Shown: positions 2,438 to 59,887, counted from the stretch's first letter. The stretch: DNA of 64,000 nt from a bacterium (GCA_037127815.1 JBAXXP010000002.1:142943-206942); one strand, 5' to 3'. Notes: generated by a model not told the origin, from the letters alone. Numbers and translations are program-made.

Positions 2438-2469
2438 TTGGGGTCAGGCACCATGGTGTCTGACCCCAA
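2438..2469. repeat. Copy 1 of the 32-bp GC-rich palindromic element, with one mismatch
   Basis: TTGGGGTCAGGCACCATGGTGTCTGACCCCAA. It lies 8 nt upstream of the ATG at 2478. Confidence 0.85.
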
Positions 2470-2477
2470 AACCAAAC

Positions 2478-3044
2478 ATGAAAGAACACATAAATAAAAT
2501 AAAAGAAAAAATTGATAAGTTTGGAATAATTAAATTCCTGGTAATTTTAATAGTAATTTCTGTAGTTTTCCAAGCGGGAATATTTGTGGGATATCACAAA
2601 GCGATGTTTTATAAATCTACTGGAGATAACTACTACAGAGCATTTAATAACAAAGGCGGTCCTGCAGGCAAAGGAGGACCAGAACAATTTGATGAATTTA
2701 TGAAAGACGCAAATCTTCCCGGAGGACATGGGGCTGTAGGAAAAATCGTTTCAATCAACTTACCCACAATTGTTGTTGCCTCACCTGACAATATTGAAAA
2801 AACAATTAATATTTCTAAGGACACTTTAATTAGACAATTCAGAGAAGATATCAACTCAAAAGATTTGAAAATTGGTGACTATATTATAGTTCTTGGGGAA
2901 ATTTCTGGTACAGACACTTCTCCTTCAGACAAGGGAATAATTAACGCAAAATTAATTAGATTATTACCTCCACCACCGCAATCTGATAACACATCGATTG
3001 TAGCACCTGCAACTACTTCAAAATCAGTAACAGAGACAAAATAA
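2478..3044 (+). CDS. Hypothetical membrane-anchored protein
   Basis: N-terminal transmembrane helix (FLVILIVISVVFQAGIFVGY), a Gly/Pro-rich linker and a C-terminal PPPPQ tract. No family recognised. Confidence 0.5.
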   Translation: MKEHINKIKEKIDKFGIIKFLVILIVISVVFQAGIFVGYHKAMFYKSTGDNYYRAFNNKGGPAGKGGPEQFDEFMKDANLPGGHGAVGKIVSINLPTIVVASPDNIEKTINISKDTLIRQFREDINSKDLKIGDYIIVLGEISGTDTSPSDKGIINAKLIRLLPPPPQSDNTSIVAPATTSKSVTETK

Positions 3045-3063
3045 TTAATTTAATTAAATCAAT

Positions 3064-4836
3064 ATGCAAAAAGAAATCAAAAATATACATAAAGAACCAT
3101 TTAAGATTAGGTTAAAGAATAAATATTTAAAATGGAAACAAATTGCTTTGACATACAAAAAGACAAGTATCGTCATTGCTATAGTTGTTATCGCATTAGT
3201 ATATTGGCTGATAAAATTAATTTTTCCTACACCAGTTATTACATCGTATGTTGTATCTGATGTTCAAAAAGGCTCAATTATCACGAACGTAACAGGTAGC
3301 GGACAAGTTTCTGCATCAAATCAAATTGACCTTAAGACCAAGGCTTCTGGCGATATATTAAAAGTAAACGTTACAACAGGACAAGAGGTTAAGGCTGCGC
3401 AAATTATTGCACAAATTGATAATCCAAGTGCATATCTTGATTATAGAGCTGCGCAAATTGCATATGAACAATTTGTTCAACCTGCAGATGCTTCAACAAG
3501 AATTCAAGCAGAAAATGATTTAAATAATACTAAGCAAAGTTACAATAAATCAGTAGACAATCTAAATAATGCATACGATACCGGATACAGTTCTGTTGCC
3601 TCAAGTTATCTAGACATGACAGAGGCCGTAACTGGAATGAACGATATACTCTATTCAGGTTCTGGATATTTGAATGATCAAAGTTTGGTAGCACTTTCGT
3701 CACAAACAAAGACTTTTAAAAATAATGCTGGTGTAAATTTTGATAAAGTAAAAAATGACTACAGGACAGCTCTTGAAACTTATAGAGCATCGTCAAGATC
3801 AAATTCAACAAGCTCTATTGAACAATTAATTAAGACAGCGTATGAGATAACAAAAGAAGTTTCAAGTACTCTTAAGGACCTAAAAAATACTGTTGACTAC
3901 ATTAAAAATCAAGATCCAAACAGCACAAACGCATCAAGCAACAGTACAGCAGCCGTAAACGCATCAAACAATCTAATTAATTGGATAGGTAAAATTAACT
4001 CTGATCTATCTAATCTATCAAGCTCAGTTAATAATATTAATGATTTAAAAGATACTATTCAAAATGGTCCACAAACGATTGCACAAAAGCAAGCAAACTT
4101 GGATAAGGTTGTAAATGGTGCAGACAATCTTGATATTGAAGCCCAAAGAATCAATCTTCAACAAAAGCAATTAACCTATCAAAATCTTTTTGTCACAGCC
4201 CCCTTTGATGGAGTTATAGCAAAAATAAGTATTAAGCCATCTGATGCAGTTTCCTCAGGAGCATCTGTTGGAACAATTATCACAAAGAACAAAGTAGCCG
4301 ATATTACTGTAAACGAAGTTGATGCAGCCAAGATTCTTGCTGGACAAAAAGCAACACTTACTTTTGACGCTATTGACGCCTTAAGTATTTCTGGAGTTGT
4401 TCAATCAATTGATTTAGTTGGAACTGTCACACAAGGTGTTGTTAATTACAATGTCAAAATTACTTTTGATGTTCAGGATGACAGAGTCAAATCTGGAATG
4501 AGCGTCAGCGCTTCTATAATTACAAACAATAAACAAGATGTAATTGTCATTCCAAATAGTGCTGTAAAAAGTAAGGGAGGAATAAAATATGTAGAGTTGT
4601 TTAGTTCAAAAGTTGCAACATCAACAACAGCACAAACTGCAAATGAGGTTCCTATACAACAAGCTGTGGAAGTTGGATTATCAAATGATACTCAAACAGA
4701 AATTTTATCAGGTCTAATTGTTGGAGACAGAATTGTTACAAAAACAACAACATCCAGTGCAACTGCCGCTAAGACAACATCAACACCTAGCTTGTTTGGA
4801 GGAGGCGGAGGAACAAGAGCTGCGACAGGACGATAA
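3064..4836 (+). CDS. Efflux periplasmic adaptor, HlyD/MacA membrane-fusion family
   Basis: N-terminal transmembrane helix, a lipoyl-like segment (GQVSASNQIDLKTKASGDILKVNV), a long coiled coil, a beta-barrel motif (VTAPFDGVIAKISIKPSDAV), and a C-terminal Ser/Thr/Gly tail. It is followed by the ABC ATPase and the FtsX-type permease. Confidence 0.8.
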   Translation: MQKEIKNIHKEPFKIRLKNKYLKWKQIALTYKKTSIVIAIVVIALVYWLIKLIFPTPVITSYVVSDVQKGSIITNVTGSGQVSASNQIDLKTKASGDILKVNVTTGQEVKAAQIIAQIDNPSAYLDYRAAQIAYEQFVQPADASTRIQAENDLNNTKQSYNKSVDNLNNAYDTGYSSVASSYLDMTEAVTGMNDILYSGSGYLNDQSLVALSSQTKTFKNNAGVNFDKVKNDYRTALETYRASSRSNSTSSIEQLIKTAYEITKEVSSTLKDLKNTVDYIKNQDPNSTNASSNSTAAVNASNNLINWIGKINSDLSNLSSSVNNINDLKDTIQNGPQTIAQKQANLDKVVNGADNLDIEAQRINLQQKQLTYQNLFVTAPFDGVIAKISIKPSDAVSSGASVGTIITKNKVADITVNEVDAAKILAGQKATLTFDAIDALSISGVVQSIDLVGTVTQGVVNYNVKITFDVQDDRVKSGMSVSASIITNNKQDVIVIPNSAVKSKGGIKYVELFSSKVATSTTAQTANEVPIQQAVEVGLSNDTQTEILSGLIVGDRIVTKTTTSSATAAKTTSTPSLFGGGGGTRAATGR

Positions 4837-4848
4837 TAATATAAAAAC

Positions 4849-5583: not shown

Positions 5584-5587
5584 TTAT

Positions 5588-5619
5588 TTGGGGTCAGGCA
5601 CCATGGTGCCTGACCCCAA
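5588..5619. repeat. Copy 2 of the 32-bp palindromic element (perfect), inside the ABC operon
   Basis: A perfect TTGGGGTCAGGCACCATGGTGCCTGACCCCAA. It sits between the ATPase stop (5583) and the permease ATG (5628). Confidence 0.9.
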
Positions 5620-15892: not shown

Positions 15893-18592
15893 CTATTTCA
15901 AATTACTAATAATCCCCCTTGTCAGTGGTCCAAAATACCCCGTAGCAGGAATCTTGTTTGCCTTCTGGAACTTTATAAGCGCAGCCTTGGTAGCAGGTCC
16001 AAAGTATGTAGTCTCCTTTCCCTTGGATCCAACACCAGTCTTTGCAATAGTGAATCCCTTTGCATTAAGATATGCCTGTAATTTTTTAACATCAGAACCT
16101 GTTGAATATACAGATAGGTTTTTGGTGAAAGATACAGGACCTGTTGATGAAATGGATGGTGTTGTTGCAGTAGAAGGTATATTAACAGTGATAGGTGTTA
16201 ATTGTAGAGATTGTGGCGCATACCCACCGCTAGCACCACCTGAATACACAGAAGCAAGAGCAGATGGAACATTTGTTGTAAAAGTTAAATCAGTTGAGGT
16301 TGAAATATTCGCTGATTCATCTCTTGCTGTAATACGGAAGTGGTATACTGTTCCACTTTGTAATCCAATTAATGACAATGCACTAGTTACGCCAAGTGAA
16401 GACACAACTGTTTGTCCATATGAGCTTGATGTTCCGTAATCAACTGTATTTGTTACATTTTTGTCGGTTGTTATGTTAACAACAGCATTATCTGTACCAG
16501 TTAATACACTTGTATTTAATATTGATGGTTTTGTGTTGTCGGCAGAGATAATGGAGATGGAGGCGGAAGAATAATTGGATACATACACCTGACCATTTAC
16601 AATACTTGAGTAAATTGGCTTTGTCCCAACGGATAAGGTCTGTGTTACTGAGTCAGTCACGGTATCAATTATTGATACATTATTTGATGCTTGATTATTT
16701 ATATATAGCTTTGTACCAAGAAGAGCTGCGGAGTTAGGGGTTGAACCAACAGCAATAGTTTTTATCACAGCATCTGTCGTTGAGTCAATAACAGAAACTG
16801 TACTTGATGCGGAATTTAGTACATATAGTTTTGTACCGACAGAGATAGAGTATAGTGGACTTTTGTTAACATTTATAGTTGATGAAACAGTATTTGTACT
16901 TGTATTTATAACGGATACAGTACTTGATGAATAGTTTACAACGTAAAGGTTTGTACCGTTAAAAGTAGAGTGTCTGGGGTTACTATTGACAGCGATTGTT
17001 GCCACCACCGTGTTTGTTGTCGTGTCTACAACAGAGACATTATTTGAGACTGAGTTTGTTATATATAATTTTGTACCGACAAGATTGAGAAAACCGGGGG
17101 ACGTTCCTACTGCTACAGTTGTTGATGAAGCTGTGTCTGTTATTGTGTTGATTATCCTAATATTATTACCACTTCCAAGATAAATATTTGAACCTATTAA
17201 GACAGGCGAAACACATGTTGATGAAAATGAAATAGTTTTAATATTAGTATCAGTCAATGTGTCTACAACAGATACATCAGAAGACCCTGCATTAAAAGTA
17301 TATATTTTAGTACCTACATTAATAATCTCTTGGGGACCATAACCTACTACAACGTAGTTTAATACTGCTTTTGTTACAGCATCAACTACAGAGACATTAC
17401 TTGATCCTTGGTTTGCTATATACAGTTTTGTGCCGACAAGAACTGTTTTGTAAGGTGTTGACAAATAATTGATATTCTGTGGAGTGGTTAACAAAACCGT
17501 ATCCGTTAGCGTATTTATAACTGATATATTTTTTCCAGAGTTGTGCACATACAGCTTTGTCCCAACAAGTACTGAGTACTTTGGTGTCGACGCAACAGCA
17601 ATAGTAGACAAAACACTATTTGTATTTGCATCTATTACTGACACAGTACTAGAACCAAAGTTGTTAACATATAATTTTGTACCAACAGCTGTTGAATTTA
17701 CTGGACCAGCATTAACAATAATAATACCTGTAACTGTGTTTGTTGTAGTATCAACAACAGAAACATTGTTTGTCGTATTATTACTTACATACAGTTTTGT
17801 ACCAATCACAGTTATTGATCTTGGAGAAGTTCCTACAGTTATAGTCGTTGATGAAGCTGTATCTGTTATTGTATCTATTATTTTAATATTATTTGTTGTT
17901 TTATTTACCACATAGAGATTGGTTCCAACAACAACTGACATTTGAGGTGCCGTGCCAACTGTTATTGTTTTTGTAACAGTATCCGTTGTTGTATCAATAA
18001 CAGAAATATTACTTGAGCCTGAGTTTGTCACATAAAGCTTTGTACCCACAAGTGTTGCGGATATCGGGGTGGTGCCAACGTTAATAGCAGAACTTACGGT
18101 ATTCGTTATAGTATTTATAACAGACACATCATTTGAGTTTTTATTTACAGAATAGAGCTTTGTACCAACAAGGATCGAAAAGAAAGCGCCATCACCAACT
18201 ATTATTGTCGCTGTAGGTGTAGTAGAGCCAGTTACGGTATCCATCACATAAACATTATCAGTACCAAGTCCTCCATATGTGGAAACATACAATTTAGTTC
18301 CAACTAGCGTCATATACATCGGAGTATCATCCCCATAATTAAAGGATAATCTTGTGGAAGAAATTAGGTCAGTAGTTGTGTCCATTATTGAGACTGCGAC
18401 AGATGGACTACCTGAGTTTGCAATGTACAGATTAGAACCAACCAGAACTGAGTAACCGGGGGCTGACACTAGACCATTGTTATAAATACTAGGAATATTT
18501 ATGGTTTGACTCACACTATCTGCTTTTACAACATTACAAAAGCTGATAGACAAAAACAAAGCGAGTAATAATATTGTTGCATTTTTTTTCAT
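15893..18592 (-). CDS. Secreted YVTN-family beta-propeller repeat protein with FN3 domain and C-terminal peptidoglycan-binding domain
   Basis: Signal peptide, then 15 or more repeats of roughly 40 aa (VGTKLYV.N..S.NVSVIDT.T.TV). FN3 VYHFRITARDESANIS. The C-terminal roughly 55 aa are identical to those of the neighbouring protease. Confidence 0.7.
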   Translation of the reverse strand: MKKNATILLLALFLSISFCNVVKADSVSQTINIPSIYNNGLVSAPGYSVLVGSNLYIANSGSPSVAVSIMDTTTDLISSTRLSFNYGDDTPMYMTLVGTKLYVSTYGGLGTDNVYVMDTVTGSTTPTATIIVGDGAFFSILVGTKLYSVNKNSNDVSVINTITNTVSSAINVGTTPISATLVGTKLYVTNSGSSNISVIDTTTDTVTKTITVGTAPQMSVVVGTNLYVVNKTTNNIKIIDTITDTASSTTITVGTSPRSITVIGTKLYVSNNTTNNVSVVDTTTNTVTGIIIVNAGPVNSTAVGTKLYVNNFGSSTVSVIDANTNSVLSTIAVASTPKYSVLVGTKLYVHNSGKNISVINTLTDTVLLTTPQNINYLSTPYKTVLVGTKLYIANQGSSNVSVVDAVTKAVLNYVVVGYGPQEIINVGTKIYTFNAGSSDVSVVDTLTDTNIKTISFSSTCVSPVLIGSNIYLGSGNNIRIINTITDTASSTTVAVGTSPGFLNLVGTKLYITNSVSNNVSVVDTTTNTVVATIAVNSNPRHSTFNGTNLYVVNYSSSTVSVINTSTNTVSSTINVNKSPLYSISVGTKLYVLNSASSTVSVIDSTTDAVIKTIAVGSTPNSAALLGTKLYINNQASNNVSIIDTVTDSVTQTLSVGTKPIYSSIVNGQVYVSNYSSASISIISADNTKPSILNTSVLTGTDNAVVNITTDKNVTNTVDYGTSSSYGQTVVSSLGVTSALSLIGLQSGTVYHFRITARDESANISTSTDLTFTTNVPSALASVYSGGASGGYAPQSLQLTPITVNIPSTATTPSISSTGPVSFTKNLSVYSTGSDVKKLQAYLNAKGFTIAKTGVGSKGKETTYFGPATKAALIKFQKANKIPATGYFGPLTRGIISNLK

Positions 18593-22130: not shown

Positions 22131-22162
22131 TTGGGGTCAGGCACCATGGTGCCTGACCCCAA
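22131..22162. repeat. Copy 3 of the 32-bp palindromic element (perfect)
   Basis: Lies between the infB stop (22126) and the rbfA ATG (22172). Confidence 0.9.
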
Positions 22163-35127: not shown

Positions 35128-35143
35128 ATTTTGTATTTTGATT

Positions 35144-35175
35144 TTGGGGTCAGGCACCATGGTGCCTGACCCCAA
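35144..35175. repeat. Copy 4 of the 32-bp palindromic element (perfect)
   Basis: Lies between two co-directional HlyD-family genes, 16 nt upstream of the 35127 start. Confidence 0.9.
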
Positions 35176-38734: not shown

Positions 38735-38814
38735 AATTATTATTATACACCAGCACTATCACACCACCTATACTATTAGTACGATAGTTATTAGAAAAAC
38801 TTTCACTATAACAT

Positions 38815-38846
38815 TTGGGGTCAGGCACCATGGTGCCTGACCCCAA
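38815..38846. repeat. Copy 5 of the 32-bp palindromic element (perfect)
   Basis: Lies 10 nt after the metK stop and 81 nt upstream of the DoxX start. Confidence 0.9.
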
Positions 38847-40006: not shown

Positions 40007-40108
40007 ACTAATTTAGTTGTGGCTACATTGTAGCACTACTCAGTTTGCAATACAATCACGCTCTATTAATTATTTGATTAATGAGCATGATTAGGTTAAA
40101 ATTATCGT

Positions 40109-40997: not shown

Positions 40998-41116
40998 CCC
41001 CTCGCCCTTCGGGCTCGAAATTCGTGCCCTTATCTCGCGGAATCAGGCAAAAGAAAAAACGCCAGCTGTGCTGACGCCTTTTCTTCTGCTGCTCCGAACT
41101 TGGGGCGATGTTCGAA
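40998..41116. repeat. attP-derived arm (P'), copy A
   Basis: CCCCTCGCCCTTCGGGCTCGAAATTCGTGCCCTTATCTCGCGGAATCAGG... is homologous to the arm at 42282..42400. Confidence 0.5.
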
Positions 41117-44637: not shown

Positions 44638-44777
44638 TAAACATAAGGAATTTCCATACTTCAACATTCAAACTCCACTTCCCTTTATATTTATTTAAAA
44701 TGTGGTAGTATTTTAGTACAACTTAATAAAAGAAGTAGCCTAAACCTATGTTGAAATATATAGGCATGGTGAAAAAA

Positions 44778-44882
44778 GTCCTGACAGACATAAAAAACCC
44801 ATCATATGGGGTGTCTGTCAGGCCGTACTGGGAAACTGGTATTGGAGAGCGCAAGCTCTCCACTCATGTGGTGGGCTTTTTG
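44778..44882 (+). ncRNA. Candidate structured small RNA or cis-regulatory leader
   Basis: An 11-bp stem CCTGACAGACA...TGTCTGTCAGG encloses a small hairpin. It is followed by GGAGAGC-GCAA-GCTCTCC (GNRA tetraloop), then CCAC-TCAT-GTGG, then GGGCTTTTTTG. The whole lies 35 nt upstream of the 44917 ATG. Confidence 0.3.
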
Positions 44883-46901: not shown

Positions 46902-49415
46902 TTGTTTTGTGTGATAGCTCTAAGTGAAGAATCTAATCAGTTACCACTTAGGGTTATCACACGGCATGTAACTGATTATATGAACAATATAAACATCCTC
47001 GCCAAAACTTTTGGCGAACAAAAACGTTGGGTAAATTACAAATTAATTGAAAAAGACGGTAAATTAATAAAGCCTCCATTCAAAACAGACGGGAGTCTCG
47101 CATCATCGACCGACAGCGGTACATGGTCTAACTACGAAGATGCTATAAAATCATCTCCTAATGTTGGCATAATCTTTACTCCAGATAAATTACTTCTTGG
47201 TATTGATATTGATCACTGTCTTGAAGACGGGGTGATTTCTCACGTAGAAAAAGAAAAGATTGAGAAACTAGTCATCAAGGCAAATACTTATACAGAAATA
47301 TCCCCCTCCAATACAGGACTGCATTTATTTCTTTCTTTGACTGAACCTCTAGAAATTCTAAAAAATAAAAGTGCCCCTTTTGAAGTTTATATATCTGGGC
47401 GTTATTTTACTGTAACAAACAACCCATACATAGAAGCTCGTCCTGTTCGTACAGTAACACCAGATGAAGCTTTTAAACTACTATCAATTATTGGTTATCC
47501 TTGGAATAAAAAAGAAGACTTTCAACAAAATATTGTAACGCTTAATACTTTATCACTCAGTGATGAAGAGATTATAACTAAAATATTCTCTTCAAAAAAT
47601 GGAGCCAAAATTAAATCACTTTACAATGGCGACATATCAACATACGGTGACGATGATTCTTCAGCAGACCTAGCATTATGTTCTTACCTAGCTTTTTGGA
47701 CACAAAAAGATCACAGTCAGATTGAACGTGTATGGCTCAATTCCCCTCTTGGTAAAAGAGAAAAAACTCAATCTCGTAAAGACTATAGAGATAGAACTAT
47801 CGAGACTGCGATAAATGGTTGTTCAGAAGTATATTCAAAATCAAGACAACAGAAAGAAGATAAGTCTGACGTTAACAATATTCAGACGGAAGTAGCAAAA
47901 GATAACACATTACTTAATGAGATTTGTAACCGAAGTGATGTAACACTATTTTGTGATGAGCAAAAAGATACTTATATTGCCTTAGACATTTTGGGGCATC
48001 AAGAGATTTGGCCTTGTGATGGTAGTTCAATAAAAAATTTACTAGCTTATATGTCTTGGAATAAAAACAAAAAACCTCTAGGTTCAGAGAGTACTAAAAG
48101 CATAATAGCCGTAATGGAAGGTAAGGCACGTTTTGAAGGAAAAGAGATTAAATTACACAATCGTGTAGCTTGGCACGATGGCAGTCTTTGGTATGATCTT
48201 ACAAATAAACAGTGGCAGGCAATAAAAATATGTGAAAGCGGTTGGGAAATTATAGGCAAACCACCAATCATCTTTAATCGATACAGCCACCAGCAGTCTC
48301 AAATTACTCCGAATCAAAACGGAAATATAGACTTATTTTTAAGGTATATAAACATAACTAATCCAGAACACCGTTTGTTATTCTTAGTTTTTTTAGTTAG
48401 TTGTTTTATCCCAGATTTTCCTCATGTAATGCTCGTGATATTTGGAGCCCAAGGATCGTCTAAATCAACTTTTTCAAAATTGACGAGAATGACAATAGAC
48501 CCATCAATGATTGATGTTGTTGCGTTACCAGAAAAATAAAATGAACTTGTACAGATACTTGCGCATCATCACGCCGTATTTTTTGACAATGTATCTCACG
48601 TCAGTGAAGATACATCAGATACAATTTGTCGAGCAATTACTGGTAGTGGTTTTTCAAAAAGAAAGCTCTACAAAAATGATGAGGATATCATATACAAATT
48701 TAACAGATGTTTAGGAATTAACGGAATAAACCTTGTTACTATTCGACCAGATTTACTTGAAAGAAGCCTACTAATAGAATTGGAAAGAATTGACCCGACA
48801 AAGAGAAAGCATGAAAAAGAACTCTACGAGAATTTTGCACAAGATTTACCATCTATTTTGGGAGGAATATTCGATATATTAGTAAGAACTTTAGAAATCA
48901 AGTCTACAATCAAAATTAACTCTCTACCTCGTATGGCAGACTGGACTATTTGGGGATGTGCAATTTCAGAAGCATTAGGATATACAAAAGAAGATTTTTT
49001 GAAGGCGTATGAAAATAATATCAACAGGCAGGCTGAAATGCTGTTAAATGAAAATATCATAGCTACTACGTTATTTTCATTCATGGAAGATAAATCAAAT
49101 TGGAGAGGAACTGCTAGCGAACTTCTGGATAGTCTATATTCAAAGACTCCTACGGATTATTTCGCTAAGTATGAGAAGTTTTGGCCAAAAAGTGCTGGCT
49201 CTTTATCTCGTAAATTAAATGAACTAAGCACGTATCTAAAGCAAATGGGAATAGTTGTAAACATTAGTACTACTGGCAAGGAAAGGTACATTGATATAAA
49301 AAATATTTCTAAAGCTAAGGAATCTATAGAGAAAAATAAGCAGATTCCTATTGGCGTTAGAGATGACGATACTTACGATATTTTATCAATACCAAAAAGA
49401 GACATTTTTGCTTAG
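46902..49415 (+). pseudogene. Prim-pol (bifunctional primase/polymerase N-terminal domain) fused to a D5/P4-type primase-helicase NTPase, interrupted by a single in-frame TAA at 48537..48539
   Basis: The N-terminal KRWVNYKLIEKDGKLIKPPF matches the prim-pol motif. Walker A GAQGSSKST lies before the stop. Reading on in the same frame (frame 0) gives NELVQILAHHHAVFFDNVSHVSED... (Walker B hhhhD) and joins the ORF 48780..49415 without a frameshift. Confidence 0.65.
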
Positions 49416-49635: not shown

Positions 49636-51189
49636 ATGGAAACTAAAGCTGTATCATACTGTAGGGTGTCATCTAAAGAACAAGAGGAGTCTGGCTATTC
49701 CCTACCATCACAGGAGAAGTTACTTGCTGAGTATGCAAACAGGAAGGGATTAGATGTGACTAAAGTATTTGCTGTAGCTGAATCTGCAAGTGGAGCAAAA
49801 CAAAGAAAGATATTTAGTGAAATGATGGAGTATATGGAAAATAAGGGCATATCTATATTGTTATGTGAAAAAGTTGATCGTCTATCGAGAAATTTAAAAG
49901 AAGCTGTGGTTGCAAATGATTGGATTGAGGCTAATCAGAAAAGACAAATTCACTTTGTAAAACAAAATCTTGTTATACACAAAGCTTCTAAATCTGATGA
50001 AAAATTTCGTTGGGATATTGAGATTGTTTTGGCGAAGAAATTTATTTCAAATTTATCAGAAGAGGTTAAAAAGGGACAGAAGGAAAAAATATCTCAAGGT
50101 TGGTTACCAACAAAACCCCCTCTAGGATATATAACGACTGGAGACAAAGGTCACAAAATACATCTAGTTGATACAGAAAAATCTTCTTATATCAAAAAGA
50201 TGTTTGAGCTTTATTCTACAGGCAACTATTCCATACCCGCCCTTGTTGAGGTCATGTACACAGATGGTTTCAGAAACAGAGAGGGTAAAAAGGTTGGAAA
50301 GTCTAGATTACACGACCTGTTATCAGACCCTTTCTACTGTGGAGAAATGAAATGGAATGGCCAAATATATTCCGCAAAACATAAACCTATTATCACAAAA
50401 GAACTATTTGATTTAGTTCAAGAAAAGATGAATCGTAAGTTTAAAATTCCTAGATATCAAAAACATTTACCAATATTTAAAGCTAAAATCGAATGTGAGG
50501 AATGTAATGGAACTATTACATGGGAAACCCAGAAGGGTCATTGGTATGGTCATTGTAACCACCATAAAAAATGTGGTCAAAAAAATTGGTGGAAACAAGA
50601 AAAGGTTGAGGAAAGGATATTCCCATACTTTGAAGGAGTAGCACCCAAAACCGCTAAGGTATTACAAATTATTGAAAGAGCAATTATAGAGAGTCACAGT
50701 GATGATACAAAAGATAATTCTAATTCACTAATTGAAGTTAATAGACGTATAGAGACATCACAACGTAGACTAGAGGCAATTTATGAAGACAAGATTGATG
50801 GAAAAATTTCTATTGATTTTTACAACAAGAAATTTACTGAATACACAAAAGAAAATGAGGAGGCTACAAAATTATTAGTCAAAGCCAGTAAGGGAAATAT
50901 AAAATATTATGAATCGTGTTTCAAAATTCACGAGCTTGCTTCAAATGCTTCACTTATCTACAAGAGCCCTAAAGCCACAACGGAGGACAAAAGACTACTT
51001 CTTAGTAAGATATTTTCGAACCTGTCATTAGGAGATGATAATATAACGCCAGAATACACATTAGCCTTTAAATTTCTTACAGAATGGCTACCTGTGCTAA
51101 ATGATAGTTTCGAACCACAAAACTATGGCTCTAACAAAGGAAAAGAGAGCACTTTCGTGCCCTCTCATCCTGTCTTGCTCCGCGGGTAG
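49636..51189 (+). CDS. Large serine recombinase (resolvase/invertase-type N-terminal catalytic domain, recombinase domain, zinc ribbon, coiled coil)
   Basis: Catalytic-serine context AVSYCRVSSKEQ, a resolvase fold, DUF/recombinase domain, a zinc ribbon CEECNG...CNHHKKCGQ, and a C-terminal coiled coil. The stop codon lies inside the tRNA-Asn 3' end. Confidence 0.9.
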   Translation: METKAVSYCRVSSKEQEESGYSLPSQEKLLAEYANRKGLDVTKVFAVAESASGAKQRKIFSEMMEYMENKGISILLCEKVDRLSRNLKEAVVANDWIEANQKRQIHFVKQNLVIHKASKSDEKFRWDIEIVLAKKFISNLSEEVKKGQKEKISQGWLPTKPPLGYITTGDKGHKIHLVDTEKSSYIKKMFELYSTGNYSIPALVEVMYTDGFRNREGKKVGKSRLHDLLSDPFYCGEMKWNGQIYSAKHKPIITKELFDLVQEKMNRKFKIPRYQKHLPIFKAKIECEECNGTITWETQKGHWYGHCNHHKKCGQKNWWKQEKVEERIFPYFEGVAPKTAKVLQIIERAIIESHSDDTKDNSNSLIEVNRRIETSQRRLEAIYEDKIDGKISIDFYNKKFTEYTKENEEATKLLVKASKGNIKYYESCFKIHELASNASLIYKSPKATTEDKRLLLSKIFSNLSLGDDNITPEYTLAFKFLTEWLPVLNDSFEPQNYGSNKGKESTFVPSHPVLLRG

Positions 51190-51249
51190 GATTCGAACCT
51201 ACGACCAATTCGTTAACAGCGAACTGCTCTACCACTGAGCTACCGCGGA
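51178..51249 (-). tRNA. tRNA-Asn (anticodon GTT)
   Basis: Reverse complement TCCGCGGTAGCTCAGTGGTAGAGCAGTTCGCTGTTAACGAATTGGTCGTAGGTTCGAATCCTACCCGCGGAG. Anticodon loop CTGTTAA. Confidence 0.85.
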
Positions 51250-52794: not shown

Positions 52795-53418
52795 CTAGAT
52801 TCCAACCACTTTCTTTCTTTCTATTTTTAACCACCACAGGAATGCAACTATACCTATTACAGAAAGGATAAGTCCAACCTCAGAGAAATATTTTCCAAAT
52901 AGATGCCATTTTCTACCAACCAAAACTCCAAGCATTAAATAAGCGACAGACCAAACTGTTGCACCGACAATATTCCATAGGTTAAATGTCTTGAAGTCCA
53001 TACCAGTTGTCCCTGCTACTATTGGAACAGCGGGACGTATTGGGCCAATAAATCTGGCCATAACAAGGCTTTTTGCCCCATATTTATCAAAAAAAGAATG
53101 CCCCACCTTCAGATTTTTTGTACTTAAATATCTATGATGATCCTTGAAGAATCTTCTGCCGTATTTACCCAGGGAATAACTAATCATATCACCAAGTGTC
53201 GCACCTATTATTGAGGCAATTACACATGGGAAAAAATGCATATAGCCCTGAGAAATTACTGAGCCAAAATAAAGCATCACAATAACTCCTGGAAATACGG
53301 CTCCAACAGGACTTGATTCTAGACCTGAAATTATAAAAACTATCAAATAAACAAGAACGCCCATTGATGCAAAATAAGGCATTGAGTCTATTATTGGTTT
53401 GATTAGAAAATCTAACAT
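52795..53418 (-). CDS. DedA / SNARE-associated (TVP38) family membrane protein
   Basis: Conserved DedA core: ...RFIGPIRPAVPIVAGTTGMDFKTFNLWNIVGATVWSVAYLMLG. Confidence 0.8.
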   Translation of the reverse strand: MLDFLIKPIIDSMPYFASMGVLVYLIVFIISGLESSPVGAVFPGVIVMLYFGSVISQGYMHFFPCVIASIIGATLGDMISYSLGKYGRRFFKDHHRYLSTKNLKVGHSFFDKYGAKSLVMARFIGPIRPAVPIVAGTTGMDFKTFNLWNIVGATVWSVAYLMLGVLVGRKWHLFGKYFSEVGLILSVIGIVAFLWWLKIERKKVVGI

Positions 53419-53510
53419 AGATTGATTATATCAGAAAAAATGACTTTTACTTAGGGAAAATTAAAGCAGTACGGCTAAATTCACGATGCACAACAAATAA
53501 CTGAATTTGA

Positions 53511-54161
53511 CTAGTTAGTCCTTATAAACTGTCCGTTACCGTATTGATAATATGAGTTTGAGTTGGAATAATAATTTTGATTTTGATACCCATATCCACT
53601 ATTGTTGCCATTATTACCATAGCCATTGTTTACATAAGCAGGATAACCAGTACTTGCTTGATAGTAAAGAGAGATTGCCGCTGTGCCCGCTGCGGTTGCT
53701 GTAGTTTGACCTATACCACCATATACACCAACGTTGCCACTATTTGAATTACCGTACGTAGTATTATAAACAGGAGTCTGTTTTCCAAAAGTATCCATTG
53801 TAGTGCTTATGCCATTGTTCGATGTGTTATTTGGCACATAAACTATCTGAGGATAATATTGAAATTGATATGGCTGACCTATACCATTATTATTAGTTTG
53901 ATTTGGTACGTAGGTTATTTGAGGATAACTTTGATATTGATACGGCTGATTGTAGTTTGATGCAGAAGAATAGTACGAATAGTTATTGCTACCCCCACAA
54001 CCACTGTAATCGCCATACCCCCCGTAATTATAATCATAAGAACCGCCACATGCCTCTACCTTATTAAAAGGCACAGCAACAAACATAATAGCAAAAATAG
54101 CCATAGAAATTACAAATGGGAAAGTGGCATTTTTAATGTATTTGTTTGTAGCGATATTCAT
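53511..54161 (-). CDS. Secreted Tyr/Asn/Gln/Gly-rich low-complexity repeat protein
   Basis: Signal/TM segment. Tandem repeats of about 24 aa (YQYQSYPQITYVPNQTNNNGIGQP / YQFQYYPQIVYVPNNTSNNGIST), mirrored as a DNA tandem repeat of about 72 bp at 53830..53960. Confidence 0.5.
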   Translation of the reverse strand: MNIATNKYIKNATFPFVISMAIFAIMFVAVPFNKVEACGGSYDYNYGGYGDYSGCGGSNNYSYYSSASNYNQPYQYQSYPQITYVPNQTNNNGIGQPYQFQYYPQIVYVPNNTSNNGISTTMDTFGKQTPVYNTTYGNSNSGNVGVYGGIGQTTATAAGTAAISLYYQASTGYPAYVNNGYGNNGNNSGYGYQNQNYYSNSNSYYQYGNGQFIRTN

Positions 54162-54214
54162 AGGCTTATTTATATCTGGATATTAGCACATATATGCCAT
54201 TTGTAAAGAGGTTG

Positions 54215-55708
54215 CTAATTAATCTTGAAAGTACTAAATATCTTATCGAAAATTGAAAAGTATGGACTACTATCTTCCTTTGCTATTGCATACAATCCAA
54301 AAATGCTCCTATCTCCATTTTTATCGCTTACACAAATATCCGCATGATATGTGCTATCACCCCCAGAAGTTACCGCGTATTTAATATATGAACCAACACC
54401 AAATTGACCTAGATCAATAAACTCGGAACTTTTAACTTTGACACTTGTTGAATTACTTAATCCAAAAGTATATTCTGCACAAGTTCCCATTATCGACAAT
54501 GTACTAAATACTATTGTTCTACCCTCTGGCTCTGTAAATGTTATCATCGTACCCTTATCAAAGTTCTCCTTTCTTTGCCAAGTATCTGGAGCACGGAATG
54601 AAAAATTTAGACCTTTATATGCATAATTATACGGATACCAAATTGATGTACTTTCAGATTGTTCTTTAAATAACCTCGCCTCTGCAATTTTGCGCATAGA
54701 ATATATAAAAGGGACCGCTGGACTGGTGGCAACAGATGAGTCGCCACCTTCTATAGATGTGCTAGTTGCAACATCATATCTAATCACCTTATTGACCGAT
54801 GGCTTACCAATCTTATCGCCACTCACATAAAAACCTCCAATCAATGTTGCAACGTTATCACTAATTTCTACTGATGAGATTGATGGCGAATATACACCAT
54901 AATTAAATGGGACGATAGTGTATCGAGGTAAAGGTACAGAAATTATAGAGCTTGAAGAACTAACCGCTGGAGCGGGAGCAACGACAGCAATTGGAGCTTC
55001 TGAAAGCAGAGTATAAAAATTATTTGTTATAGTTTTGTTTGCTGTACCATTTTCAGTTGCAGATATAGAAATTACAGCATCATTTATGCCGTCTTTATTT
55101 AAATCGCCGATAGCCCAAATTTTATCTAGCTTATAATATGGGAAACAAAGTCTTTCTGTTGGCGTGTTGTAGCAAACATCCCCCATCGCCTCTCCATTTG
55201 ATAAGGTAATATTTACACCATTCTTATCATTATTGGTTTTAATTAGATACTGAGAGCCACTTGCTGCCATGATAATATTTGAGACATCAGATGAATTTGG
55301 ATCAACACCTTCTCCAAACGTGATCTTGCCAATAGCACCAACACCACTGTTTATTCCACCGCCTGCAACAGTCTTTGCAGTGTTGACTGAATTTTTAATA
55401 TTTTTAAGCACAGTAATTGGCGAATCTATAAGACTTTTGATTGCAACTTCCTCAACTGTCGGAGCTTCTGAACCTGCGGGATTTTGATCTGTAATTGGGC
55501 CTCTAAGTACAGCATCTTCTTGTTGTTGCTTCTTAGTTACTATAGATTGAAATAGCTTTCCTTGCTCATTTATACCAATATAGTATGCAGCTACCGCAAG
55601 TAGTGTAAGACCTATTATAAAATAGAAAACAAAAGTAACAGAACCTTTATTTTTTAAGATTCTGTCATTGTCCATGTTCGAGTGTTTTTTTTCGATATTC
55701 AAAAACAT
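54215..55708 (-). CDS. Hypothetical membrane-anchored extracellular protein
   Basis: N-terminal transmembrane helix VTFVFYFIIGLTLLAVAAYYIGI and a large extracytoplasmic domain; no family recognised. Confidence 0.5.
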   Translation of the reverse strand: MFLNIEKKHSNMDNDRILKNKGSVTFVFYFIIGLTLLAVAAYYIGINEQGKLFQSIVTKKQQQEDAVLRGPITDQNPAGSEAPTVEEVAIKSLIDSPITVLKNIKNSVNTAKTVAGGGINSGVGAIGKITFGEGVDPNSSDVSNIIMAASGSQYLIKTNNDKNGVNITLSNGEAMGDVCYNTPTERLCFPYYKLDKIWAIGDLNKDGINDAVISISATENGTANKTITNNFYTLLSEAPIAVVAPAPAVSSSSSIISVPLPRYTIVPFNYGVYSPSISSVEISDNVATLIGGFYVSGDKIGKPSVNKVIRYDVATSTSIEGGDSSVATSPAVPFIYSMRKIAEARLFKEQSESTSIWYPYNYAYKGLNFSFRAPDTWQRKENFDKGTMITFTEPEGRTIVFSTLSIMGTCAEYTFGLSNSTSVKVKSSEFIDLGQFGVGSYIKYAVTSGGDSTYHADICVSDKNGDRSIFGLYAIAKEDSSPYFSIFDKIFSTFKIN

Positions 55709-55772
55709 AGTAATATTATATCACTATAAGTAAAAAAGTTTAAGAATTATAATGCAAGAAATCCGAAAATGA

Positions 55773-56219
55773 TTACATAGTTAAAACCTCCTTCACCTTC
55801 TCCACAATTTGATCTAAGGTGTAGTTTGTTTTAACTAGAAAAACGGTAGTTCCCTGCTCCATTGCATGAGCGACACTCTCTGGCTTATCAATTGATGTAA
55901 GCATCATAACTTTTGCATGTTCTCCCCAAGGATCAGTTCTTAGTTTTTCTAATGTCTCCCAACCACTCATATTTGGCATTTTTACGTCAAGCAAAATTAC
56001 GTCTGGCTTTATTTCAAATGCTTTCTTTAGACCAATTACTCCGTCTCCAGCTGATTCAGCGATAAAACCTGAGAAGTTTAGTTTATCTACTAAAACGGAA
56101 GAAAGGTTCTCGTCATCATCAATTACTAATACTTTTTTCTTAATAGTTACTGCCGGCTCAGCAGCTGTGTTTACGTCTAGATTTGCATCAGTTTGATTTG
56201 TTGTGTTTTGTTGTTCCAT
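55773..56219 (-). CDS. Single-domain response regulator (CheY-like receiver)
   Basis: KKVLVIDDDENL ... ILLDVKMPNMSGWE ... MMLTS receiver motifs (Asp pocket, phospho-Asp, Thr/Ser, Lys). Confidence 0.85.
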   Translation of the reverse strand: MEQQNTTNQTDANLDVNTAAEPAVTIKKKVLVIDDDENLSSVLVDKLNFSGFIAESAGDGVIGLKKAFEIKPDVILLDVKMPNMSGWETLEKLRTDPWGEHAKVMMLTSIDKPESVAHAMEQGTTVFLVKTNYTLDQIVEKVKEVLTM

Positions 56220-56272
56220 GATGGTTATATTATAGCCTTAATTTGGGGTTTTGGCCAAGGTAAGTAGTTAAA

Positions 56273-56929
56273 TCAGTTTCCCATGCAATAATCACCTAAT
56301 TCAGAAGGCCCTTCTCCCCAATCTATTATTTCCTTATTCCAGTAGGAACTCGTAAATGGAAAAGAAGGTTGACCATACAATTGACTATCAATATCTTGAA
56401 GATAAATTTGTATATAATAATTATTAAATGTTTTAATACCACCGCAAGAGTAGTAGCGTGAAAAATACTCCGATAACTCAACAGGATCGGTGACATAAGC
56501 TATATACATATAACCCAACTTAGGAAGAGAGATTAGTGATTTAGTCAAATCACCCATATATAGCTTTTTTGTTTTAAGTAAAGCGCTTACATTATCAGTA
56601 ACTTCAGTTAAGGTAGATGCGGGTACACCAAGTTGGTACTGATCTTGAAGCCAAGAGCCTAGAGGAAATTTCGGATATGATCCAAAACTTGTCCTATATA
56701 ACTCCAAGGCCTTGGCAAATTCCTCCATATCACTTCTCACCTTTGATATCTGAGCCTTTTGTCTCGCTGTATTTACTGAAGCCAAAACAACAGATGAAAG
56801 CAAAGCAATAATTGAAATAACCACCAGAAGTTCAATTAGAGTGAAGCCAGCTTTCTTGAACCTAGATCTAGAGCCCCCCCCTATCAGTTTTGAGATTCCT
56901 TCCTCTTTGTATTTTTTAAAAATTCGCAT
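56273..56929 (-). CDS. Type IV pilin / pseudopilin-like protein
   Basis: KAGFTLIELLVVISIIALLSSVVLASV prepilin motif after a 27-aa leader. Confidence 0.7.
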   Translation of the reverse strand: MRIFKKYKEEGISKLIGGGSRSRFKKAGFTLIELLVVISIIALLSSVVLASVNTARQKAQISKVRSDMEEFAKALELYRTSFGSYPKFPLGSWLQDQYQLGVPASTLTEVTDNVSALLKTKKLYMGDLTKSLISLPKLGYMYIAYVTDPVELSEYFSRYYSCGGIKTFNNYYIQIYLQDIDSQLYGQPSFPFTSSYWNKEIIDWGEGPSELGDYCMGN

Positions 56930-56944
56930 ATTTTTGTTAATATA

Positions 56945-58399
56945 TTATAACCTCAAAGTGAAAGTTGAGCCAACATTCTCCTCTGATGCAAAACTAATAC
57001 TTCCGCCAAGTGCCTCAGCAACTGATTTAACAAGATATAGACCAAGTCCAGTACTTTGGCTACTACTAACATCCTGTACATTTTTCGCACGAAACAGCTT
57101 TGAAAAAACTCTGTTTTGCTGATCCTTTGGAATTCCCAGACCAGTATCTGTTACGCTTATTTCTCCTTGATCTAGACTTACTCCATCCTGCAAATCAATT
57201 GTTATACTTCCGCCGTCTCTATTGTACTTAATGGCATTTGTAATCAGGTTTTGAATAACAATTCTGAGAAGTTTTGGATCACTATTCACATTTGATAATG
57301 CATTATTGTATTTCTTATTAAATACGATTTTCTTTGCATCAATTTGCGACGCAAGTTCAACGATAATTCCATCAACAATTAGGGGCACATTTGTAGATTC
57401 TTTTGTTATTGCAAGTGTACCGATTTCTATTCTTGAAACATTTAATAAAGTCTCTACTAAATCAACCATATCTTTATTAACCCTAGCCATTCTACCTAAA
57501 TATTCTTTTTGCTTATCTGTTAAGACACCTAAATCTCCAGATGAAAGCATTTCTGTATACCATTTAATTGTTGCAAGAGGTGTTCTCAATTGATGTGAAG
57601 CTAAGGAGACGAATTCTGTCTTTGCTTGATCCAATTGCTTTTGCTCTGTTATATCAAAAACTGTAACCAAACCACTTTTCTTACCTGTTGAAAAATCTTT
57701 ACTTTGAAATATTGAAATTGAAGCCCATTTAACTGAACCTTCTTTTGTTATCATTCTAATTTCCTCCTTATTGATTGGTAGATTAGATTTGTAAAAATTA
57801 AGGAATTTCTCACCCAGTTCCTTATCTTCTTCTGCTGTATAAAAAAAGAAATTTTTTCCTGAAATTTCGGCTGGTATAACTCCAAAAAATCTTAGAGCAG
57901 ATTTATTACATCCATGTATTTCACCTTCTTCGTTAATTGTTAAATATGGTATTGGTGCATTTTCATATATTTCCTCAAGCTCCATCTTTGAACCTAGTAG
58001 TTTTTTTGTCTTATATGAAGAGATAAGCTCTGCTCGCGTTGTTGATGTTAAAAGAAGATACACTATATAACCAATAAGTACTGTAGTTATATAGGCAGAA
58101 ATCAACAATATCAATGCTTCAAATCCAGAAGCAGAGAAACTAGTGAACATTCCTCCTCCAGTACCCGCTCCTTCTAGATTAAAATATTTTTGAGGATATA
58201 AAAATATATCAGTGAAGAAAGGGGTGACCCAAAACAAAAGTCCCATTAGCACAATTACAGTTGTAATACTAATTGTAATATGTCTAACAAGAATATCCTT
58301 TTGTTCTAGTTCTGAAGATGGATCCTTTGCTTTTTCCAACAATGGTTCAACTGTAGTTGGCACCAAAGCTGGTATTTCATTTTCTACATTTTCAGTCAT
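56945..58399 (-). CDS. Sensor histidine kinase (TM, PAS, HisKA, HATPase_c)
   Basis: N-terminal transmembrane helices, a PAS segment, the H-box SHQLRTPLATIKWYTEML, N/G boxes (NLITNAIKYN, DTGLGIP, GLGLYLVKS). Confidence 0.85.
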   Translation of the reverse strand: MTENVENEIPALVPTTVEPLLEKAKDPSSELEQKDILVRHITISITTVIVLMGLLFWVTPFFTDIFLYPQKYFNLEGAGTGGGMFTSFSASGFEALILLISAYITTVLIGYIVYLLLTSTTRAELISSYKTKKLLGSKMELEEIYENAPIPYLTINEEGEIHGCNKSALRFFGVIPAEISGKNFFFYTAEEDKELGEKFLNFYKSNLPINKEEIRMITKEGSVKWASISIFQSKDFSTGKKSGLVTVFDITEQKQLDQAKTEFVSLASHQLRTPLATIKWYTEMLSSGDLGVLTDKQKEYLGRMARVNKDMVDLVETLLNVSRIEIGTLAITKESTNVPLIVDGIIVELASQIDAKKIVFNKKYNNALSNVNSDPKLLRIVIQNLITNAIKYNRDGGSITIDLQDGVSLDQGEISVTDTGLGIPKDQQNRVFSKLFRAKNVQDVSSSQSTGLGLYLVKSVAEALGGSISFASEENVGSTFTLRL

Positions 58400-58449
58400 A
58401 GAAATATTATATCACACAGAACTCATGTACTACAGTGTATGGACCCTGA

Positions 58450-59835
58450 TTATTCGTACGAAACCTCATCCTTTCTCTCTCTTAAATCAATTGGGTACTT
58501 TCCATTAAAACATGATGTGCAAAATAGTGATTCGCTAAGTCCAGTTGATTCTATCATTCCATCGTAGGACAGAAAATTTAAAGATGTAGAACCTAAATAT
58601 TTATTCATCTCTTCAATACTCATTTTAGATGCAAGTAAGTCAGATTGCTTTGGTAAATCTATTCCATAAAAATCTGGATATTTAACTGGCGGAGAACTTA
58701 TAACAAAGTGAACCTCCTTTGCGCCCGTTTCAAAAAGCATTTTAACAATTTGGCGAGATGTAGTTCCTCTAACAATTGAATCATCGACAACAATAACCCT
58801 TTTATTTTCAATCATCTCTTTAAGTGGTGCTAGTTTTAACTTAACACCCTGTTCTCTAATATGCTGTTCTGGTTCGATAAAAGTTCTGTGAATATATCTA
58901 CTTTTAATAATTCCCATTTCAAATGGAATTCCAGATGCATTTGCATAACCTATAGCAACAGGAATTGAAGTCTCAGGAATTGGTATAACAACATCTGCAT
59001 CAATTAAATACTCCTCTGCTAAGCGCTTTCCAAAATTCTTTCTAACATCATAAATTGACTTGCCAAGCAAAGTACTGTCAGGTCGGGAAAAATATACGAA
59101 TTCAAAAATATCCAGCTTCTGAATTCCTTTTACGATTTGTTTTATCTTAAGCCCGCTCTCATCTACAACAACCATTTCTCCTGGATTCACATCTCTCATA
59201 AAAGTTGCACCAATTGGATGAAAGGCGCAGGTTTCTGATGCAAAAACAAAGCCTCCATTTAACTTGGCAATAGATAGTGGTCTAATTCCATATTGATCTC
59301 TAAGTGCAATCAACTTATTCTTAGTCATTATTAATATAGAAAAAGATCCCGTCATTAGCGGGAAAATTTCTTCTATAGCATCTTCTATTGTTTTACCTTT
59401 AGTAACAAGGGCGTGCAGTGCTTCTGTGATTATCATAGAGTCGGAAGCTTTTTGCAATTCTATTCCCCTATCCTTCAAAAACTTTGTTAATAGCGTTGTG
59501 CTAGGTAGGTTTCCATTGTGCACCAAGGTGATTGTCTTGTCAGAAGTTTCTATGGGGTGTGCGTACTCAACTCCGGCACCTGACGAGGTTGAATATCTAT
59601 TGTGACCTATTCCAATGTATCCTGGTAGACTTTGTATTATTTTCTCATTGAAGACTTGCGATACTAATCCAACTCCTTTATGACAAAATATTTCTTCCCC
59701 ATCTGTTGTTGCAATTCCTGAATTCTCCTGCCCTCTATGTTGTAGAGAGTATAAACCAAAAAAGGTCAGACGGCTTACGTCTAGACCTTTACCATAGATT
59801 CCAAATACTGCACATTTTTCTCCAGGGTTTTCCAT
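58450..59835 (-). CDS. purF: Amidophosphoribosyltransferase
   Basis: N-terminal nucleophile Cys (CAVFGIYG), a Gn-AT type II domain, and the PRTase motif VIVVDDSIVRGTTSRQIVKML. Confidence 0.9.
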   Translation of the reverse strand: MENPGEKCAVFGIYGKGLDVSRLTFFGLYSLQHRGQENSGIATTDGEEIFCHKGVGLVSQVFNEKIIQSLPGYIGIGHNRYSTSSGAGVEYAHPIETSDKTITLVHNGNLPSTTLLTKFLKDRGIELQKASDSMIITEALHALVTKGKTIEDAIEEIFPLMTGSFSILIMTKNKLIALRDQYGIRPLSIAKLNGGFVFASETCAFHPIGATFMRDVNPGEMVVVDESGLKIKQIVKGIQKLDIFEFVYFSRPDSTLLGKSIYDVRKNFGKRLAEEYLIDADVVIPIPETSIPVAIGYANASGIPFEMGIIKSRYIHRTFIEPEQHIREQGVKLKLAPLKEMIENKRVIVVDDSIVRGTTSRQIVKMLFETGAKEVHFVISSPPVKYPDFYGIDLPKQSDLLASKMSIEEMNKYLGSTSLNFLSYDGMIESTGLSESLFCTSCFNGKYPIDLRERKDEVSYE

Positions 59836-59855
59836 ACACTTATTGTATCATATAT

Positions 59856-59887
59856 TTGGGGTCAGGCACCATGGTGCCTGACCCCAA
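59856..59887. repeat. Copy 6 of the 32-bp palindromic element (perfect)
   Basis: Lies between the ABC gene stop (59895) and the purF start (59835), 20 nt upstream of the purF ATG. Confidence 0.9.

Follow-up and report, generated by a model that had tools for sequence, protein, structure and literature searches.

We analyzed a 64,000-nt stretch of DNA from a bacterium (GCA_037127815.1 JBAXXP010000002.1:142943-206942), referred to here as the window, in which one GC-rich palindrome recurs between genes. Its 32-nt form, TTGGGGTCAGGCACCATGGTGCCTGACCCCAA, had perfect matches at positions 5588, 22131, 35144, 38815 and 59856 and a match with one mismatch at 2438. The GC content of the window is 33-40% throughout; no match to the 32-mer appeared in 100 dinucleotide-preserving shuffles, and the number of copies expected by chance is zero. 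Thus, the five perfect copies and the single imperfect one described in an earlier note on this DNA were all recovered. The full unit is a 34-bp palindrome, the sole dispersed intergenic repeat family in the window. All its copies are singletons, with the nearest pair in the window 3150 nt apart.

Copy 1 (2438..2469) carries a C to T change at 2459, which makes a G.U pair in the RNA of the plus strand and leaves a hairpin of -26.6 kcal/mol. It begins 3 nt past the stop codon of a gene for a 135-aa hypothetical protein, with 8 nt left between its end and the ATG at 2478, within an operon for an extracytoplasmic function (ECF) sigma factor and efflux proteins. The other copies are perfect. Copy 2 (5588..5619; hairpin of -28.3 kcal/mol) is situated 4 nt past the stop of an ABC ATPase gene and 8 nt before the ATG of a MacB/FtsX permease gene, in a spacer too short for a promoter. 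Copy 3 (22131..22162) is located 4 nt past the stop of infB and 9 nt before the ATG of rbfA. The genes around the remaining three copies are on the minus strand. Copy 4 (35144..35175) follows the stop of a gene for a YknX-like membrane-fusion protein by 4 nt and precedes the ATG at 35127 by 16 nt; copy 5 (38815..38846) is 10 nt past the metK stop and 80 nt from the ATG of a DoxX gene; copy 6 (59856..59887) is 7 nt past the stop of an ABC exporter gene and 20 nt from the ATG of purF, whose extended -10 box it abuts directly. The gaps between the palindrome and the start codon are therefore 8, 8, 9, 16 and 20 nt, with 80 nt at copy 38815, and the short gaps given in the earlier note agree with these values. 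Its description of copies inside operons agreed with the Pfam assignments as well (ABC ATPase and MacB/FtsX permease on the two sides of copy 2, IF-2 and RbfA on the two sides of copy 3).

On the other hand, a seventh, degenerate copy claimed near 27983 was not supported. The segment 27983..28036 matched in one arm only, at 11 of 13 positions; chance alone predicts 0.36 arm matches of this quality per window. Its fold was weak (z = -1.7), and the site has a canonical terminator (28046-28075) on one side and a leaderless promoter on the other. We rejected it as a copy.

The sequence of the window lies in the 214.8-kb contig CAYQJB010000002.1 of the metagenome-assembled genome (MAG) GCA_964417855.1 and recurs in JGI, ENA and Logan assemblies. 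Since the same sequence was found across these assemblies, the palindrome is not an assembly artefact. One Logan contig (L062) stops 33 nt past infB, within the palindrome, which shows that the element also breaks short-read assemblies. The top named relatives of the encoded IF-2 came from Candidatus Pacebacteria and Taylorbacteria (64-66% identity). To judge from its sequence, the host is an uncultured Paceibacteria-like member of the Patescibacteria, or candidate phyla radiation (CPR).

The count of copies beyond the window that the earlier note had suggested was made with the 28-bp core of the palindrome in JGI metagenome contigs. Nine more distinct copies were found elsewhere, on contigs that come from the same lake samples or from SESB01 and that share the GC content and the tetranucleotide signature of the window (r = 0.97-0.98). 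With the six copies of the window, there are at least 15 distinct copies in the lineage. The palindrome family is thus dispersed in the lineage rather than restricted to the region of the window. We observed no matches in viral contigs, phage records or plasmids that would indicate a phage or plasmid origin, and a literature search by sequence returned unrelated eukaryotic primers only.

The neighbors of the copies are unrelated housekeeping genes and form no regulon. In the window these are the ECF-sigma/efflux operon (two copies), the ABC ATPase and MacB/FtsX permease genes, infB and rbfA, the gene for the YknX-like adaptor followed by an MFS transporter gene, metK and the DoxX gene, and the ABC exporter gene and purF. 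On the other contigs these are dut and tmk, glyA, the gene for RNase J (rnj), the gene for RNase III (rnc), and mreB. The copy at rnc (L067 160-191, L072 7290-7321) ends 10 nt before the start of that gene, whose product has the N-terminal signature ...NERLEFLG. In principle, this copy could be a substrate of RNase III itself.

An alignment of both flanks of the 15 independent copies defined the repeated unit. It is 34 bp long, T-TTGGGG...CCCCAA-A, and extends the 32-mer by one base on each side; 26 of the 30 flanks have a T at position -3 relative to the GGGG core. The same alignment revealed nothing conserved in the flanks beyond this T/A, which belongs to the unit, and neither a target-site duplication nor a direct repeat at any of the 15 copies. 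The flanks of copies 2 and 3 are similar (92% over 51 nt); both are low-complexity contexts, rich in A and in stop codons.

Folding of the stem, also proposed earlier, gave a stem of 14-17 bp closed by a CAUG loop; free energies ranged from -26.6 to about -30 kcal/mol and z from -5 to -6.4. The palindrome being perfect, the same hairpin is transcribed from either strand. Of the copies in the lineage, 13 of 15 are perfect, one has the single C to T change with G.U on the transcribed strand, and one has a compensatory change, GTGGGG...CCCCAC. Copies with 3-8 mismatches were absent from about 170-200 kb of lineage DNA. A scan of the window against Rfam at gathering scores had no match at any copy, while a sensitive scan around copy 3 gave sub-threshold matches to generic hairpins (miRNA). 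We also considered avoidance of restriction sites and rejected it: apart from the elements themselves, CCATGG and GGYRCC are about as frequent as expected.

The signals around gene starts matter for the placement of the palindrome. A Shine-Dalgarno-like motif was present in 4 of the 62 genes of the window, while a TATAAT-like hexamer ending 5-9 nt before the start was present in 19 of the 62, with a peak at 6 nt and with a TG extension in 11 of these. Both the scarcity of Shine-Dalgarno motifs and the start-abutting -10 boxes were noted window-wide, for example in the row of minus-strand genes at 52795-59850. This pattern predicts that a large share of mRNAs in this lineage would be leaderless and that many spacers would be filled by a promoter abutting the ATG, a side result that may interest specialists more than the palindrome itself. 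For instance, the extended -10 element of purF (TGATACAAT, 59842..59850, minus strand) separates copy 6 from the start codon, with 6 nt between the element and the ATG, and implies that purF mRNA is probably leaderless. Downstream of copy 5, the DoxX gene has a -10 element of the TGTATAAT type (38742..38750, minus strand) 7 nt before its ATG. The spacers with copies 2438, 5588, 22131 and 35144, on the other hand, are too short to hold a promoter for the next gene. Transcription units end at ordinary terminators with T-runs, each unique in sequence (7554, 24098, 28046 and 63477). No U-run follows the palindrome at any of the six window copies, and the earlier view that it is not a classic intrinsic terminator holds.

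None of the 15 copies falls within a gene: the flanking genes are co-directional at 12 copies, convergent at two and divergent at one. Twelve of the 15 begin at most 12 nt past a stop codon, and ten end at most 20 nt before a start codon. For the six unbiased copies of the window, we compared the placement with a null model uniform over all 7068 possible intergenic insertion points in the window. All six copies were within 10 nt after a stop codon (expected 8.9%, P = 5e-7), while five of six were within 20 nt before a start codon (expected 15.9%, P = 5e-4). Also, five of six were in co-directional spacers that had been at most 30 nt long before insertion (expected 3.7%, P = 4e-7). Stop-codon adjacency is the stronger and more general placement rule, and the proximity to starts largely reflects very short spacers. 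The enrichment near starts, on which the earlier note had placed its emphasis, is real but is exceeded by that near stops.

With respect to the distance to the start codon, we observed two classes. In the first class (six copies) the gap is 8-10 nt long, A/C-rich and too short for a promoter; therefore, the downstream gene must be co-transcribed. In the second class (three copies, at purF, glyA and tmk) the gap is 19-20 nt long, and the palindrome is followed directly by TGnTAcAAT, then by 6-7 nt and the ATG. An extended -10 box between the palindrome and the ATG would place the hairpin outside that gene's own, apparently leaderless, mRNA. Besides these classes, the two copies between convergent genes (L064 and L066) have no start codon nearby. 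The convergent copies, the second class and copy 5, whose downstream gene starts behind its own -10 box, together argue against a general role of the palindrome in initiation of translation downstream.

We compared the infB-rbfA junction with that of four relatives having 80-84% IF-2 identity. In three of them the spacer is 18-21 nt long, AT-rich and devoid of a palindrome or hairpin. In the fourth (L079 2053-2095; 84% IF-2 identity) the same spacer holds an unrelated and unique GC hairpin, GCCCCGCCCGC-gaa-GCGGGCGGGGC, with no U-run. Removal of either insert leaves a spacer of about 13-17 nt. A search with up to two mismatches detected no palindrome arm in about 35 kb of the relatives' DNA (L079-L081). 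The empty spacers and the lack of arms indicate that the palindrome is a lineage-specific insertion into an ancestrally tight junction, and the two different inserts suggest independent gains of hairpins at this site. The nearest relative with available DNA is the one at 84% IF-2 identity, and at such divergence the flanks do not define the boundaries of the insertion.

Identical copies with unrelated flanks, no target-site duplication and unrelated neighbor genes point to a repeat related by common descent. We therefore favor, with a probability of roughly 0.6, the interpretation that the palindrome is a young, lineage-specific, non-autonomous 34-bp repeat, similar to the repetitive extragenic palindromic (REP) sequences, that was copied to many intergenic sites of one Paceibacteria-like population. 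The earlier suggestion of a mobile palindrome resembling a REP or a miniature inverted-repeat transposable element (MITE) stands insofar as it concerns the identical copies, the unrelated flanks, the empty sites in relatives and the REP-like placement. The target preference for spacers at ribosome-binding sites, which was part of that suggestion, did not prove to be a general rule.

The closest comparison is with the REP systems of Enterobacteria and Pseudomonas and with REPINs (REP doublets forming hairpins) and their RAYTs (REP-associated tyrosine transposases) in the same groups (Di Nocera et al. 2013, PMC3733652; Bertels & Rainey 2011, PMC3116915). Published REPs are intergenic, mainly between unidirectional or convergent open reading frames (ORFs) and near the 3' end of the upstream ORF. 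One end carries an unpaired tetranucleotide, GTAG or CGTC, by which their superfamilies are defined (PMC3733652). In REPIN/RAYT systems the copies occur mostly as inverted pairs, and the RAYT gene, which encodes a Y1 (HUH) transposase, is single-copy and usually flanked by repeats. Like REPs, the palindrome is a GC-rich unit in the 20-40 bp range, dispersed, strictly intergenic and lineage-specific, with no target-site duplication. Its placement is REP-like as well: the neighboring genes mostly run in the same direction or converge, and the palindrome closely follows the 3' end of the preceding ORF. It is probably transcribed as a hairpin. It differs in that no RAYT was found in the DNA sampled and in that its host belongs to the Patescibacteria. 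A literature search on Patescibacteria with 'extragenic palindromic' found no relevant report on REPs and one irrelevant paper. As it lacks two defining features, the GTAG/CGTC tag and the paired REPIN arrangement, we class the palindrome with the dispersed palindromes rather than with the REP/RAYT family.

For a REP-like repeat the observed placement could have a simple origin. Copies would persist only at harmless sites, at which both promoters and the 8-9 nt right before an ATG stay intact. In a compact genome, whose spacers mostly measure about 10-20 nt or are occupied by a promoter, the harmless sites would be those a few bases past a stop codon. Since such sites sit just past stops in short spacers, the palindrome would appear to be placed upstream of starts. 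As for the copying itself, it may proceed through a single-strand hairpin intermediate, by template switching or with an HUH/Y1 (RAYT-like) enzyme whose gene is in another part of the genome. A perfect palindrome, which forms the same single-strand hairpin on either strand, suits both routes. Intrastrand templated correction could keep the arms complementary and would explain the perfect arms as well as the compensatory variant.

The E. coli REP between malE and malF stabilizes the upstream mRNA, and terminating ribosomes are reportedly impeded by REPs no more than about 15 nt from a stop codon (study by Liang, Rudd and Deutscher). By analogy with the REPs of E. coli, the hairpin at the 3' side of the upstream cistron may act as a barrier to 3'-to-5' exonucleases. 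It may also be a weak brake on transcription or translation, so that expression of the upstream gene would be raised relative to that of the downstream gene. Efficient termination is unlikely, because at four window copies a promoter for the next gene would not fit.

The genomes of Patescibacteria are small and streamlined and are thought to be poor in repeats. If our interpretation is true, a REP-like repeat would here be seen for the first time to expand in the genome of a CPR bacterium, and it would mean that even genomes as compact as this one can be invaded by selfish or semi-domesticated palindromes. The sites of the palindrome would then show where a compact genome still accepts 34 extra bases. 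The mechanism of copying becomes a tractable question, since the tag and the transposase of the classical REPs are not seen here.

Several observations weigh against this interpretation. Unlike in REPs, the GTAG or CGTC tag or its complement is absent from the unit and is not conserved in the flanks, where T/A alone is conserved. REPs are imperfect palindromes, whereas this one is perfect, and the inverted pairs or clusters that characterize REPINs and bacterial interspersed mosaic elements (BIMEs) are replaced by singletons only. There is no transposase of any kind near the copies. A crude motif scan covering part of the genome, about 200 kb of lineage DNA, detected no ORF with an HUH...Y motif. 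Similarly, the Pfam domains assigned to about 75 kb around the window include no Y1_Tnp, the only recombinase there being the serine recombinase of an integrated element. A strain variant, TTGTGG (L061), has a G to T mismatch that is not compensated. The sharp clustering of the start gaps at 8-10 nt (six copies) and at 19-20 nt (three copies) could reflect something more specific than mere tolerance of insertions. The sampling matters too: the loci of the metagenome scan were found by exact match and are thus biased to perfect copies, and the JGI scan overlooked one contig known to carry the palindrome, which makes the copy counts lower bounds. Finally, every RNA-level effect of the palindrome described above is one that we infer.

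Two other classes of repeats were compared with the palindrome. The Correia/NEMIS elements of Neisseria are MITEs of 100-150 bp, derived from insertion sequences (IS), with distinct terminal inverted repeats and a TA duplication. The palindrome resembles them in being non-autonomous, built of inverted repeats, gene-proximal and co-transcribed, with RNA stems that nucleases could process. It differs in its 34-bp length, in the lack of a duplication and of any internal sequence (it consists of two abutting arms only), and in that no cognate IS was seen. The cyanobacterial HIP1 (GCGATCGC) is, like our element, a perfect palindrome over-represented genome-wide. However, HIP1 is 8 bp long, has thousands of copies, occurs within genes too and is not a hairpin-forming unit.

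An alternative that we consider unlikely is a cis-acting mRNA element serving the downstream gene, through control of translation initiation or as a processing site for an RNase, e.g., RNase III, that frees the downstream cistron. The first distance class speaks for it: six of the 15 copies end 8-10 nt before an ATG with an A/C-rich unstructured stretch in between, including a copy with no stop codon next to it (L071:1852). The scarcity of Shine-Dalgarno sites (4 of 62), which bears on how internal cistrons initiate, speaks for it as well. A perfect duplex of 14-17 bp is a plausible substrate of RNase III. The lineage encodes RNase III and RNase J, with one copy 10 nt upstream of rnc, so that the prerequisites for processing by RNase III, a perfect stem of this length and an rnc gene, appear to be present. 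Yet the convergent copies L064 and L066 have no start nearby. The genes purF, glyA and tmk have their own extended -10 box after the hairpin, and the gene after copy 5 starts 80 nt further on, with a promoter of its own in between. Proximity to stops is statistically stronger than proximity to starts, and relatives operate infB-rbfA with a hairpin-free spacer of 18-21 nt. Cleavage at the base of the hairpin would yield a leader of 8-10 nt rather than a leaderless 5' end. Given the convergent copies and the -10 boxes that follow the hairpin, control of translation initiation, one of the options in the earlier note, is not supported as a general rule.

Another possibility, to which we likewise give little weight, is a terminator or insulator that works with no U-tract and blocks read-through into genes having their own leaderless promoter. 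The palindrome does resemble an intrinsic terminator in its GC-rich stem right past a stop, and most copies are immediately past stops, three of them abutting the extended -10 box of the next gene and two being between convergent genes. One lineage copy, L069:10426, with A5/T5 flanks, looks like a canonical bidirectional terminator. An identical 28-bp core in L070, an unrelated contig with 60% GC, is terminator-like too, with A6/T4 flanks between trpS and a convergent gene. On the other hand, hairpins with no U-tract terminate poorly with the bacterial RNA polymerases tested in vitro, and the six window copies have no U-run. Four of these (2438, 5588, 22131 and 35144) are within operons that have no room for another promoter, and the permease gene, rbfA and the other downstream genes need read-through. 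Ordinary T-run terminators already end the transcription units, and the palindrome of L066 is followed by a canonical terminator, a redundant arrangement if both terminated.

A further reading keeps the repeat and changes both its mode of spread and its role. The palindrome could be a minimal self-propagating unit that has no dedicated transposase, spreads by hairpin template switching or with the help of a host nuclease, and has also been co-opted as orientation-independent punctuation between cistrons, in a bacterium that has largely given up Shine-Dalgarno initiation in favor of leaderless mRNAs. It would set 3' ends or processing sites and thereby the amount made of each neighboring gene. 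In that case the two sharp distance classes, 8-10 nt from the ATG and 3-5 nt from the extended -10 box, would serve a function and not just be tolerated. We regard this as quite unlikely.

We find it improbable that the palindrome is a double-stranded DNA site for a dimeric protein, such as an operator or a loading site of the ParB/Noc kind. Its perfect two-fold symmetry would fit, as would the position of three copies centered about 36 nt upstream of leaderless starts of genes of nucleotide and one-carbon metabolism (purF, glyA and tmk). Also, the gene for a ParB homologue of unusual length (428 aa) lies 2.3 kb from copy 1; canonical parS sites, searched with up to two mismatches, are absent from the window and from around parB, which counts in favor of this reading; and the density of copies in the window (1 per 11 kb) is above that in the other copy-bearing contigs. 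Still, perfect identity over 34 bp amounts to about 68 bits. About 15 bits would suffice for a few dozen sites if the genome is about 1 Mb in size, as assumed, and such an excess of information argues for common descent and not for selection for binding. No graded or degenerate sites were seen, and the flanking genes form no regulon. The position relative to promoters is inconsistent, as copies occur in operons, between convergent genes and after terminators. The relatives lack the sites at infB-rbfA and in the stretches searched, and the copies are never inside genes, unlike parS and Noc sites. The operator idea of the earlier note is accordingly weak. The gene of the long ParB homologue is located at L073 3243-4529, 2.3 kb beyond the left end of the window.

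A lox/FRT-like recombination site for a tyrosine recombinase is hardly credible, being favored by size and by the layout of 13-bp arms with an 8-bp core (13 + 8 + 13 = 34 bp) alone, while the core ACCATGGT is itself symmetric, at least six sites per 64 kb would scramble a chromosome whose synteny is identical across independent assemblies, and no tyrosine recombinase is nearby, the only recombinase of the window being of the serine type with its own 211-nt att-like repeats.

The palindrome has a practical consequence for gene annotation. A public gene call of 224 aa (window 34486-35160, minus strand) begins at the central ATG of copy 4 and reads MVPDPKIKIQNMENP..., which gives it the false N-terminus MVPDPKIKIQN. 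The earlier note had predicted an artefact of ORF callers, and for this gene call it was right. The central CCATGG is thus an annotation hazard, as gene callers are misled to false N-termini (MVPDPK...).

Outside the lineage, we searched for the 12-bp stem GGGTCAGGCACC with loops of 0-10 nt and found 57 loci in about 38 assemblies from many phyla, with multiple copies in some. Perfect 12-bp hairpin windows occur at a base rate of 92 per Mb, which leads to about 3-30 expected matches per stem with 9 G/C in 596 Gb. A null model of independent arms would give 0.02 matches; this is the wrong null for hairpin stems. We therefore rejected a universal cross-phylum element, as the stem matches are of the order expected by chance, and did not use these matches as evidence. 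Multi-copy families with this stem were seen in the Hyphomicrobium MAG JANOFU01 (L031, L033, L036-L038, L052, L054 and L056) and in CAVRJK01 (L018, L034, L042, L048 and L049). These foreign families carry loops of their own (ttttgg and tttcatgaga) and are probably cases of convergence. The motif scan for RAYT/IS200 was also negative in the foreign loci sharing the stem. The identical 28-bp core mentioned above, with CC/GG and A6/T4 flanks, is at L070 6601-6632 (ODAI012823708.1, 60% GC), where the convergent gene next to trpS is proC-like. Its presence there may be due to coincidence or to transfer.

The window also contains an integrated element of about 10.2 kb (41-51.2 kb). It is bracketed by direct repeats of 211 nt, 95% identical, at 40792-41002 and 50990-51200, which overlap the 3' end of a tRNA-Asn gene (51177-51249). 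The element encodes a serine recombinase (49636-51189) and an NrS1-like primase-polymerase (46911-48539), and no copies of the palindrome are inside it. A LOOT RNA (Rfam RF03000) was detected within it at 44737-44860 on the plus strand, just upstream of its row of genes, with 80.4 bits compared to the gathering score of 46.4.

Upstream of metK, the gene whose stop is followed by copy 5, there is an S-adenosylmethionine (SAM) riboswitch at 39891-40008 on the minus strand. Finally, an ORF of 899 aa on the minus strand (15893-18592) contains nine copies of a unit of about 93 nt at 16629-18050, spaced by about 120 nt and having 62-74% identity. This arrangement indicates a tandem-repeat domain in a large hypothetical protein that has no Pfam match.

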